Below are positions 2,691-63,523 of a stretch of DNA of 64,000 nt, in pieces. Source of the DNA: Escherichia phage vB_EcoM_SA21RB; the sequence record OL960580; one strand, written 5' to 3'. The position numbers and the translations under genes were made by a program. A model generated the notes under the pieces. That model did no database searches, had not been told where the DNA came from, and saw only the letters and a program-made list of their open reading frames with translations. Every line of letters begins with the position of its first letter. Positions within the stretch are counted from its first letter, which is position 1.

Positions 2691-3182
2691 ATGTTTGTAG
2701 ATGATGTAACACGAGCGTTTGAATCTGGTGATTTTGCTCGACCTAACTTGTTCCAAGTAGAAATTTCTTATCTTGGACAAAATTTTACGTTTCAATGTAA
2801 AGCCACTGCTTTACCAGCTGGTATTGTAGAAAAAATTCCAGTCGGATTTATGAACCGTAAAATTAACGTAGCAGGCGATCGTACATTCGATGACTGGACT
2901 ATTACAGTAATGAATGATGAGGCGCATGATGCACGCCAGAAGTTTGTTGACTGGCAAAGCATTGCTGCTGGGCAAGGAAACGAAATTACCGGTGGAAAAC
3001 CAGCAGAGTATAAAAAGAGCGCTATTGTACGCCAATATGCTCGTGACGCTAAAACTGTAACAAAAGAAGTCGAAATTAAAGGCCTGTGGCCTACTAACGT
3101 GGGTGAACTTCAATTAGATTGGGATTCAAACAATGAAATCCAAACCTTTGAAGTAACTCTCGCTCTCGATTATTGGGAATAA
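2691..3182 (+). CDS. 19: Tail tube protein gp19
   Basis: 163-aa ORF, same length as T4 gp19; follows gene 18. Confidence 0.93.
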   Translation: MFVDDVTRAFESGDFARPNLFQVEISYLGQNFTFQCKATALPAGIVEKIPVGFMNRKINVAGDRTFDDWTITVMNDEAHDARQKFVDWQSIAAGQGNEITGGKPAEYKKSAIVRQYARDAKTVTKEVEIKGLWPTNVGELQLDWDSNNEIQTFEVTLALDYWE

Positions 3183-45641: not shown

Positions 45642-46673
<1,032 letters not shown>

Positions 46674-46684
46674 ATTATCTCCTA

Positions 46685-47017
46685 TTAAAAAGGATCAGGA
46701 ACATATCCACTAGCTTTAATCATTTTAACTAATGTTACCATTCCTTTGTTAACTGCTTGTGAGATTTCATCAAAAACTTCATCATTAAAAAGTTCTAGCA
46801 CACCCTTCTGAACTTTTAATTTACAGCCAACAATTTCGTCATCGCCTATAGTAAATTCATTACCGCCAATTCCACCGAAAAACTTAATTACCCCAGTTAA
46901 CTGTCTTCCACGAGAATATGGGTCATGTGATAAAGTAATATGAGTCACCCCAGGTACAGTTTTAAATTGGCAGCGAATGTTTACTTGGGAAATTCCAGTT
47001 ACATGAACGTCAGACAT
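46685..47017 (-). CDS. frd.2: Hypothetical protein (frd.2)
   Basis: 110-aa ORF. Confidence 0.65.
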   Translation of the reverse strand: MSDVHVTGISQVNIRCQFKTVPGVTHITLSHDPYSRGRQLTGVIKFFGGIGGNEFTIGDDEIVGCKLKVQKGVLELFNDEVFDEISQAVNKGMVTLVKMIKASGYVPDPF

Positions 47018-47027
47018 AATGTTTTCC

Positions 47028-47270
47028 TCAGACAGACTTTTTCACAATTTTCCAATCAGCTTTAAACTGATCAACGTCAGAATGATAAATCCAGAATCCT
47101 GCGCTTTCTCCATCCTCATAAAGAGGGCATCCATCGCATTCATCTTCCCATCCCATATCACGCAAAAGACGTTCAGCTTTTTCAACAAGTTCAGAATCTT
47201 TACCGATGATATTAAAATACCATTTACCCCTAACTTCTGAATCTTTAATGCTCTGACGTTGTAATCTCAT
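47028..47270 (-). CDS. frd.3: Hypothetical protein (frd.3)
   Basis: 80-aa ORF with SD AAGGAG. Confidence 0.65.
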   Translation of the reverse strand: MRLQRQSIKDSEVRGKWYFNIIGKDSELVEKAERLLRDMGWEDECDGCPLYEDGESAGFWIYHSDVDQFKADWKIVKKSV

Positions 47271-47280
47271 TTTATTCTCC

Positions 47281-47349
47281 TTAGCAAGCTTTAATCAAAA
47301 GGTATAAGCAAACTAACATAACTGCTGCCATAATATAAGGTGCGAACAT
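47281..47349 (-). CDS. Candidate 22-aa hydrophobic micro-protein
   Basis: ATG with GGAG 9 nt upstream; MFAPYIMAAVMLVCLYLLIKAC; stop 10 nt before the frd.3 start; downstream of an early promoter. Confidence 0.35.
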   Translation of the reverse strand: MFAPYIMAAVMLVCLYLLIKAC

Positions 47350-47379
47350 TTTCTTTTCTCCATTAGTTTTGATAGGGTA

Positions 47380-47409
47380 ATAGTATCACACTACTACCCT
47401 TCTGTAAAC
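47380..47409 (-). promoter_or_regulatory. T4-type early promoter (GTTTAC, 18-nt spacer, TACTAT)
   Basis: Reverse complement read directly. Confidence 0.6.
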
Positions 47410-47789
47410 TACTTTTTGAAAGTTTTTCGCAAAAGTTCAATGATTTCGTCTACATTGTTTTCGTCAACAATGCAGTGAATTTTTGTTACGCCAGAAACCT
47501 TGTCTTCGACTTCATCTTCTTCAAAAGTCGGTTCTTTATACTCACGAAAACAATGAAATTCGTCTTCGCAAATTTCTGAAAGTCTATCACAAAGGTAAAA
47601 ATGCTTTCCATTAGCGCATTCAATGTGTTTTACAGCTTTAAATCCATTAGCAAAGAAAACTTCTTTAACTTCAAACCATCCGCCATTTTCTCGAATAATT
47701 TTAACTATTGACGCATTAGATCGTGGGCTATAATTAATAAATGTATCAATAAGTCTTGGAACAAGTTCATACTTTTTGCCAATATACAT
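47409..47789 (-). CDS. Hypothetical protein, 126 aa
   Basis: ATG ORF in the gene 32 to frd.3 interval. Confidence 0.65.
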   Translation of the reverse strand: MYIGKKYELVPRLIDTFINYSPRSNASIVKIIRENGGWFEVKEVFFANGFKAVKHIECANGKHFYLCDRLSEICEDEFHCFREYKEPTFEEDEVEDKVSGVTKIHCIVDENNVDEIIELLRKTFKK

Positions 47790-62946: not shown

Positions 62947-63221
62947 TCGAAATAATCTTCAATTTCATAATCAAGAACATAAATCATTATAGTTTTTAAT
63001 ACATCATCAATACTTTTTCCTGGAGCTGGAATTACGTAAAAATATCCTGCTTTTGAGAGGTCTTTATAAGTTCCAACCAAGAAATCATTATTCTCAAGAT
63101 GCAGTTCTTCAACTAATTCATTAACAATTGAGTGGTATAAATTTGGTAGAAACTTATATAGCTTTTCTAGAATATCAATTTTGATTGTGTATTGAACCAC
63201 AGACTGAGAATCAATAATCAT
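62943..63221 (-). CDS. arn: Arn-like anti-restriction protein (acidic, 92 aa)
   Basis: Position after asiA and length match T4 Arn; acidic composition. Confidence 0.6.
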   Translation of the reverse strand: MIIDSQSVVQYTIKIDILEKLYKFLPNLYHSIVNELVEELHLENNDFLVGTYKDLSKAGYFYVIPAPGKSIDDVLKTIMIYVLDYEIEDYFE

Positions 63222-63304
63222 AGACCTTCCCCTTATGTTTCTGTTTGCGATTAGATTCTTTAAACGCTTTCTTCTTATCCTTATGGACAGAAGCTTTATT
63301 AAAA

Positions 63305-63523
63305 TTATGTTTTGCGACTAAATTGTTCATAGTGCTGAATTACCTCTCTCAAACATTTGCATGTGAATGAAAACTTTTTAGCTACACCACATTCAAATAT
63401 ATGTTCTCTTAAATCACGTGTGTCAGTATATCCCATCTCAACAATAAAATGCCGTATTAGATTTTTATCTTTATCATTGAGAGAATTAAAATAATCGGAT
63501 TTTGAATTAATTTCCCTGGCCAA
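63305..63523 (-). CDS. Hypothetical protein (arn.x); start uncertain
   Basis: Track start is TTG; first ATG gives 43 aa from 63436. Confidence 0.45.
   Translation of the reverse strand: MAREINSKSDYFNSLNDKDKNLIRHFIVEMGYTDTRDLREHIFECGVAKKFSFTCKCLREVIQHYEQFSRKT

Follow-up and report, generated by a model that had tools for sequence, protein, structure and literature searches.

What, if anything, is encoded in the 138 nt that separate frd.2 from frd.1 in T4-like phages? T4 is among the most thoroughly annotated of all viruses, yet its deposited records (NC_000866 and AF158101) leave this gap empty. The window analysed here, a stretch of 64,000 nt from Escherichia phage vB_EcoM_SA21RB (OL960580), comes from a Tequatrovirus (that is, a T4-like phage; the closest match is Shigella phage ESh29, at 96% identity). 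Its minus strand presents, in order, gene 32, frd.3 (83 aa), frd.2 (126 aa), the 138-nt gap, frd.1 (80 aa), two extra small genes, frd and td, with gene names transferred from the annotations of T4 and Sf24. The gap is flanked by the frd.2 homologue (47409-47789, minus strand), whose TAG stop (47411-47409) adjoins the -35 hexamer of the promoter described below, and by the frd.1 homologue (47028-47270, minus strand), a DUF5417 protein gene. In a dCas13d knock-down screen, frd.2 is reported to be the one T4 "Fit" gene whose function is unknown (PMC11879866). An earlier note on this DNA, made from the letters of the window, had proposed that the gap holds a gene for a hydrophobic micro-protein of 22 residues. 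The answer argued here is that it very probably does: the sequences of this phage and its relatives point to a genuine if optional early gene, carried on a mobile promoter cassette, whose product would be a tiny membrane-spanning peptide.

The reading frame in question (the micro-ORF) occupies 47281-47349 on the minus strand: 22 codons, opened by ATG and closed by TAA, with the product MFAPYIMAAVMLVCLYLLIKAC. It lies, as had been claimed, behind a Shine-Dalgarno GGAG (47358-47361, minus strand), 8 nt 5' of its ATG; an in-frame TGA is found 12 codons 5' of that ATG, with no start codon between the two. The early-type promoter that had been placed upstream is also there: a -35 hexamer, TTTACA (47403-47408, minus strand), preceded by an A-rich stretch that includes the frd.2 stop, and a -10 hexamer, TACTAT (47380-47385, minus strand), which is of the extended type, having TG (47388-47387) one base before it. 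The two hexamers are 17 nt apart (47408-47380), and the site agrees with the T4/PST consensus for early promoters, TTTACW-N17-TAYWAT (PMC4122927). Spacing alone predicts a transcription start near 47373. In the deposited T4 records no promoter feature is entered at this locus. Two particulars of the original description have to be amended. The TAA (47283-47281) does not end 10 nt short of the next Shine-Dalgarno sequence: it abuts that GGAG (47277-47280, minus strand), and 10 nt is what separates it from the following ATG. The 80-aa gene that follows, at 47270-47028, had been called frd.3; in T4 nomenclature it is frd.1, and it would be the second cistron of the same promoter.

(A technical note: in phage Lutter an automated promoter annotation, TTGATT-N18-TAAAAT, has been laid over the last part of the micro-ORF, at 652-681 of the extracted locus, which corresponds to 47298-47269 of the window, minus strand. 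Its 9 matches out of 12 are chance level and its -10 covers the start region of frd.1; the feature is probably spurious.)

How much of this might one expect by chance? Dinucleotide shuffling of the 138-nt gap yields an ATG-initiated ORF of at least 22 codons in 12.5% of cases and one that also has GGAG 5-10 nt upstream in 0.4%; some 4 kb around the locus are overlapped by 59 ORFs of at least 20 aa. With a GRAVY of 2.05 the peptide comes fourth in hydrophobicity among the 237 ATG ORFs of 18-30 aa in the window, which by itself is weak evidence, short hydrophobic ORFs being common in this AT-rich genome. From a single sequence the case for coding is suggestive; it is comparison that makes it strong, and it is because of the comparative evidence that the candidate stands well above chance.

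Comparison also bears on the earlier note's expectation that so small a gene would be missed by annotation, which is right for the T4 records and for nearly all relatives, and wrong for one phage. In vB_EcoM_ACG-C40 the same gene, in the same position between frd.2 and frd.1 and of the same 22 aa, has been called independently and is entered as D862_gp276 / ACG-C40_0237a (YP_006986794.1, AFH20202.1), differing from the window's peptide by F2L alone. The database calls it "hypothetical protein" and nothing else, and the paper describing that genome is silent on it. This is the only annotation found: no CDS underlies the micro-ORF in any of the 60 tblastn matches listed, T4 AF158101 included, nor in T4 RefSeq NC_000866 or the other relatives checked; the T4-type peptide sequence does not occur in a collection of 15 billion proteins; and a literature search that covered a T4 ribosome-profiling study, T4 start-site mapping and the peptide string itself found nothing relevant. 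The micro-ORF has, in short, been annotated once and never studied.

In T4 the micro-ORF lies at complement 146015-146083 of NC_000866, in a gap that is likewise 138 nt long, and specifies a peptide identical to that of the window. The two genes differ at 4 nucleotides, all 4 of them synonymous (chance P = 0.0014). Divergence between the same two phages is pS 0.30 and pN 0 for the micro-ORF, and pS 0.25 and pN 0.010 for frd.1; with its pS like that of its neighbor, the region is not merely frozen: it is constrained at replacement sites only.

Reading more distant copies extends the argument. Twenty-six were read, from Tequatrovirus, Mosigvirus (ESh15) and Dhakavirus (MN04, Esco_phi_B-01). Across these three genera and three genomic contexts, ATG, 22 codons and TAA are intact in 26 of 26 copies, and the Shine-Dalgarno sequence is kept in every one, whatever the context. 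The complete list of replacements is short: F2L, A8T/V/I, A9V/T, M11I, L12V, V13I and A21T. Among the 9 haplotypes there are 18 variable sites, of which third codon positions account for 11, first positions for 5 and second positions for 2, and pairwise dN/dS ranges from 0 to 0.29. Between the window and Dhakavirus MN04, 16 of the 69 nt have changed, at a cost of 5 replacements, all conservative; in simulation, the probability that this divergence would leave the ORF intact with at most 5 changes is 1e-4, and that these would in addition all be conservative, 5e-6. Indels between genera are present in the 5' UTR and absent from the micro-ORF. Loss of the frame in close relatives, by which the earlier note would have had its proposal refuted, is not seen; conservation, which it had named as one way to check the proposal, extends to frame, length, start, stop and ribosome-binding site alike. 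Substitutions are distributed as in a coding sequence that purifying selection maintains, which supports the claim of a micro-protein gene, and we infer that the frame is translated.

In the phage collection exactly 200 records have the DNA region, and all 200 give a full-length tblastn match to the peptide; 161 of these matches are identical, 35 show a single change, and the other 4 have diverged further. Most of these copies are near-identical, so that independent lineages are few; four haplotypes alone carry two or more amino-acid changes.

(The alternative frames were also inspected, and both contain stop codons. T4 has a second 22-codon ORF here, MEKRKCSHLILWQQLCWSVYIF, at 3030-3098 of the extracted locus, minus strand, which begins in another frame at an ATG overlapping the Shine-Dalgarno sequence of the micro-ORF. 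The window has a version shortened to 16 codons, other relatives have stops within it, and it was rejected.)

A gene under selection need not be a gene of every relative, and this one is not. Frd.1 is at least 90% identical in about 513 records, and the micro-ORF is present in only 200. Approximately 60% of the phages with a T4-type Frd.1 lack it, and any benefit that it confers must accordingly be conditional. T2, in which it is missing, shows that it is dispensable. In T2 and in Kha5h the same promoter-hairpin is joined straight to the frd.1 Shine-Dalgarno sequence (TATCAA followed directly by CTAAGGAGAATAAAATG), a clean absence of 84 nt; the indel is bounded by the near-repeat CTAA(T)GGAGAA, whose right-hand copy consists of CTAA and the GGAG region of frd.1. 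Karamvirus, Gelderlandvirus and IMG/VR relatives also place the promoter-hairpin directly before frd.1, without the micro-ORF, and for that reason its absence looks ancestral at the frd.1 site.

The micro-ORF also changes its place. In Dhakavirus MN04 the unit of promoter, micro-ORF and TAAGGAGA junction is found in the dda-dexA...rIIA region, ahead of an unrelated gene of 73 aa, and in Esco_phi_B-01 yet another gene is downstream; in Dhakavirus the micro-ORF is always behind the same promoter-hairpin element. AR1 (278-538 of the extracted locus) and RB27 (351-611) have an extra gene of 86 aa between frd.2 and the promoter/micro-ORF cassette, a further sign of module exchange at this junction; the AR1 annotation gives JS98 as the best match of the extra gene. 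(A search of the IMG/VR and JGI metagenomes with the back-translated C-terminal pattern returned T4-identical copies and chance matches in unrelated ORFs, with no gain in diversity.)

The probable vehicle of these movements has a precedent. The promoter-early stem-loop, or PeSL, was defined by Arbiol et al. (2010; PMC2839356), and recombination between PeSLs inserts or deletes small ORFan genes and moves them to new places in T4-type genomes (PMC2839356; Comeau et al. 2014, PMC4122927). In the window a predicted hairpin, GGGTAGTAG..CTATTACCC (47375-47399, minus strand), lies over the promoter spacer and the -10 hexamer, with a stability of -19.1 kcal/mol (z = -4.1) that none of 200 shuffles equalled. 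Ten variants of it from five genera, ahead of frd.1 or of the micro-ORF, have differing stems (GGGTAG.., GGCTAT.., GGGTTAT.., GATAGGG..), in which some pairs are altered on both sides; they come to 10-14 bp and -13 to -17 kcal/mol, and none of 300 shuffles was as stable. The predicted hairpin over the -10 hexamer is, by this comparison, a PeSL-type element kept by covariation. The other attributes of a PeSL can be ticked off around it: an A-rich region with an upstream stop; σ70-like -35 and -10 hexamers with a 17-nt spacer; a stable stem-loop overlapping the -10 hexamer; a Shine-Dalgarno sequence and the ATG of a cargo gene at the 3' end; and association with an indel (T2, Kha5h) and with relocation (MN04). 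PeSL crossovers have been mapped from the -10 hexamer to the Shine-Dalgarno sequence or ATG (PMC2839356), and the indel described above is bounded by the Shine-Dalgarno region. The resemblance is not complete: a cargo of 69 nt is far below the size of the ORFans that have been described, and the downstream flank is a Shine-Dalgarno remnant alone rather than a full second PeSL. The micro-ORF is best seen as a putative PeSL cargo of extremely small size. (Promoter and terminator activity and the formation of mini-circles have been demonstrated for the PeSL elements of RB49/phi1 only; PMC2839356.)

What sort of peptide is it? From F2 to I19 the peptide is uncharged, and this hydrophobic run of some 18 residues is near the lower limit of length for spanning a membrane. 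Tyr5, Tyr16, Lys20, Cys14 and Cys22 are invariant in all the copies read; the termini, M-[FL]-A-P-Y-I-M and C-L-Y-L-L-I-K-[AT]-C, are nearly so; and exchanges in the core are of one hydrophobic residue for another or involve small residues only. Such variation fits a single short transmembrane helix, and the peptide would be expected to insert into a membrane. Searches of Pfam, NCBIfam and the PDB with the peptide gave no match at E values up to 10, and PHROGs gave a single insignificant one (phrog_32555, E = 0.5); comparisons of neighborhood, family and structure offered no clue to a target.

When would it be made? Of 200 shuffles, 199 are more structured than the predicted mRNA from about 47373 to the start of frd.1 (z = +2.2), and a search of the micro-ORF region against Rfam found no overlapping family. 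This openness suits efficient initiation and disposes of RNA structure as an explanation of the conserved stretch. Both ribosome-binding sites resemble the strong RegB cleavage consensus, GGAGRAYARAA (PMC3014915): that of the micro-ORF (GGAGAAAAGAA; 47351-47361, minus strand) at 10 of 11 positions and that of frd.1 (GGAGAATAAAA; 47271-47280, minus strand) at 11 of 11. Both are likely RegB targets, and the fit suggests that expression ends within minutes of the onset of infection.

The account that best joins these observations, and that we consider probable, is of a dispensable early gene, carried as PeSL cargo, for a single-helix micro-protein of the inner membrane that has a specific partner and is synthesized briefly. 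It would work as follows. The micro-ORF would be transcribed as the first cistron behind a σ70-type early promoter with a hairpin over its -10, and its own GGAG, on an unstructured mRNA, would allow the 22-residue peptide to be made. The peptide would most likely cross the inner membrane of the host as one short transmembrane helix, with Pro4 and Tyr5 at one membrane interface and Tyr16 and Lys20 at the other; the positive-inside rule would place Lys20 and the C-terminus on the cytoplasmic side. It may act by binding specifically to a membrane protein or to another copy of itself, rather than through non-specific damage to the membrane; the former is favored because the two ends hardly vary, whereas the core accepts exchanges among hydrophobic residues. 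The shut-off of early promoters and RegB cleavage at GGAG would probably restrict synthesis to the opening minutes of infection, and the gene would be gained and lost as a unit, through recombination between promoter/Shine-Dalgarno cassettes.

The alternative to be taken most seriously accepts the gene and disputes the action of its product: the peptide might be a counterpart of type I toxins in the style of Ibs, ShoB and TisB, perturbing or depolarizing the membrane non-specifically for host shutdown or for exclusion of competitors. A product of 22 aa with a GRAVY of 2.05 does bring those toxins to mind, and early, brief expression, as implied by the promoter and by GGAG sites of RegB type, would suit a factor of host takeover. 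Yet the peptide matches no type I toxin family (Ibs, ShoB, TisB, Ldr or Hok) in NCBIfam, Pfam or the PDB, and near-invariant termini together with two invariant cysteines suggest specific contacts. Nor is an antisense RNA partner evident: promoter-like sites on the plus strand nearby number 12, against an expectation of 7.8 +/- 2.7, which is chance level, and Rfam contributes no match. A toxin-like action is distinctly unlikely.

A second alternative makes the act of translation matter and not its product: as a leader ORF, the micro-ORF would tune the downstream gene through termination at a TAA set on the next Shine-Dalgarno sequence, followed by re-initiation. The geometry for it is certainly at hand, with the TAA abutting the downstream GGAG, 10 nt before the downstream ATG, and the TAAGGAGA junction is kept in all contexts, even before the unrelated genes of Dhakavirus. 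To that extent the earlier note was justified in seeing an arrangement that allows translational coupling. Coupling is clearly not required, however, since in relatives that lack the micro-ORF frd.1 is served by that very promoter and Shine-Dalgarno sequence; the unstructured mRNA leaves no masked downstream Shine-Dalgarno sequence to be opened; and a pure coupling device has no need of an amino-acid sequence under selection (dN/dS 0-0.29, with conservative replacements only). That the micro-ORF is nothing but a leader is quite improbable.

The third would dispense with the gene altogether, and hold the open frame to be incidental to a conserved untranslated leader or DNA element. ORFs of this size are indeed frequent, as the shuffles of the gap and the 59 ORFs in 4 kb attest, and nearly all annotators have passed this one over. 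Incidental frames should not, however, concentrate their variation in third positions, differ between window and T4 by synonymous changes alone (4 of 4, P = 0.0014), stay open across 16 differences (P of about 1e-4 for the pattern seen), exclude the indels that the UTR admits or keep a Shine-Dalgarno sequence in all contexts, and neither RNA structure nor an Rfam match was found that could account for the conservation. This reading has become very improbable indeed. Next to no credence attaches to the last, a lipoprotein-type signal peptide that ends at a lipobox cysteine (...L-I-K-A-C) and serves as a lipidated Cys only or as an Lgt/LspA decoy: I-K-A-C after a hydrophobic core is loosely lipobox-like and its terminal Cys is invariant, but the lipobox is [LVI][ASTVI][GAS]C, the N-terminal region has no basic residue, Lys at -2 is atypical, RB32 has at -1 a Thr, which is not a usual lipobox residue, and nothing follows the Cys.

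If the preferred reading holds, and a specific partner is bound by a briefly made membrane peptide, with what should it be compared? E. coli has its own small inner-membrane proteins, among them the type I toxins IbsC (19 aa), ShoB (26 aa) and TisB (29 aa) and the modulators KdpF (29 aa), AcrZ (49 aa) and MgrB (47 aa). The likeness is one of size and of the single hydrophobic helix predicted for the peptide, and those proteins act in or on the inner membrane; the sequences are unrelated, and the micro-ORF, for which no antisense RNA partner is evident, is encoded by a phage. The T4 proteins of superinfection exclusion, Imm and Sp, are likewise early, small, membrane-located and dispensable in the laboratory. 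They are four times larger and without sequence similarity to the peptide, and a link between it and exclusion is unsupported. Stp, at 26 residues the smallest annotated product of T4, is another very small product of an early gene; it is polar and acts on the EcoprrI-PrrC complex, while the micro-ORF peptide is almost wholly hydrophobic and shares no sequence with it. The ORFs of T4 have been listed as ranging from 26 to 1,289 aa (PMC4122927, Table 1), and against that minimum the 22 codons of the micro-ORF would make it T4's smallest gene. Small proteins, of no more than 50 aa, are described in a preprint as regulating larger ones (bioRxiv 10.1101/511675).

One can go further and suppose that a conditional factor of host takeover or anti-defence, a cysteine-bearing membrane peptide, is found in T4 and some 40% of its close relatives, where it binds a specific host protein of the inner membrane and moves between early regions on promoter-hairpin cassettes. 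In so specific a form the proposal is rather unlikely to be right; if it were, PeSL gene shuffling would have no smaller known cargo than the micro-ORF, and the peptide would found a new class of phage micro-effectors. Short of that, the locus is instructive in several ways: 1) Even in a model phage, micro-genes under selection escape notice when annotation applies a length cut-off. 2) T4 and T6 versus T2 constitute a compact natural presence/absence system for what would be a single-helix membrane peptide of the first minutes of infection. 3) The distribution of the micro-ORF is narrow, and it provides a very small and clean example of gene gain and loss at promoter cassettes of the PeSL type.

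Some further small ORFs in the vicinity and elsewhere in the window deserve a remark. In Enterobacter phage myPSH1140 an unannotated ORF of 13 codons, MFDAFKKLLKVDD (600-641 of the extracted locus), is preceded at 7 nt by GGAG; on one side of it is a GC-rich hairpin that resembles a terminator, on the other the frd.1 promoter cassette. The two small genes between frd.1 and frd in the window (46428-47017, minus strand; 110 aa and 81 aa) are both missing from T4, in which frd follows frd.1 after 71 nt; since related phages have one, two or none of them, the frd.1-frd interval can be regarded as a hyperplastic stretch. At 63211-63330 (minus strand), there is a very basic ORF of 39 aa (MNNLVAKHNFNKASVHKDKKK...), with a motif that resembles a Shine-Dalgarno sequence; in relatives a small hypothetical protein is annotated next to arn in that region, and the ORF is for this reason probably the already-annotated small gene beside arn (arn.1 in phage ime09).
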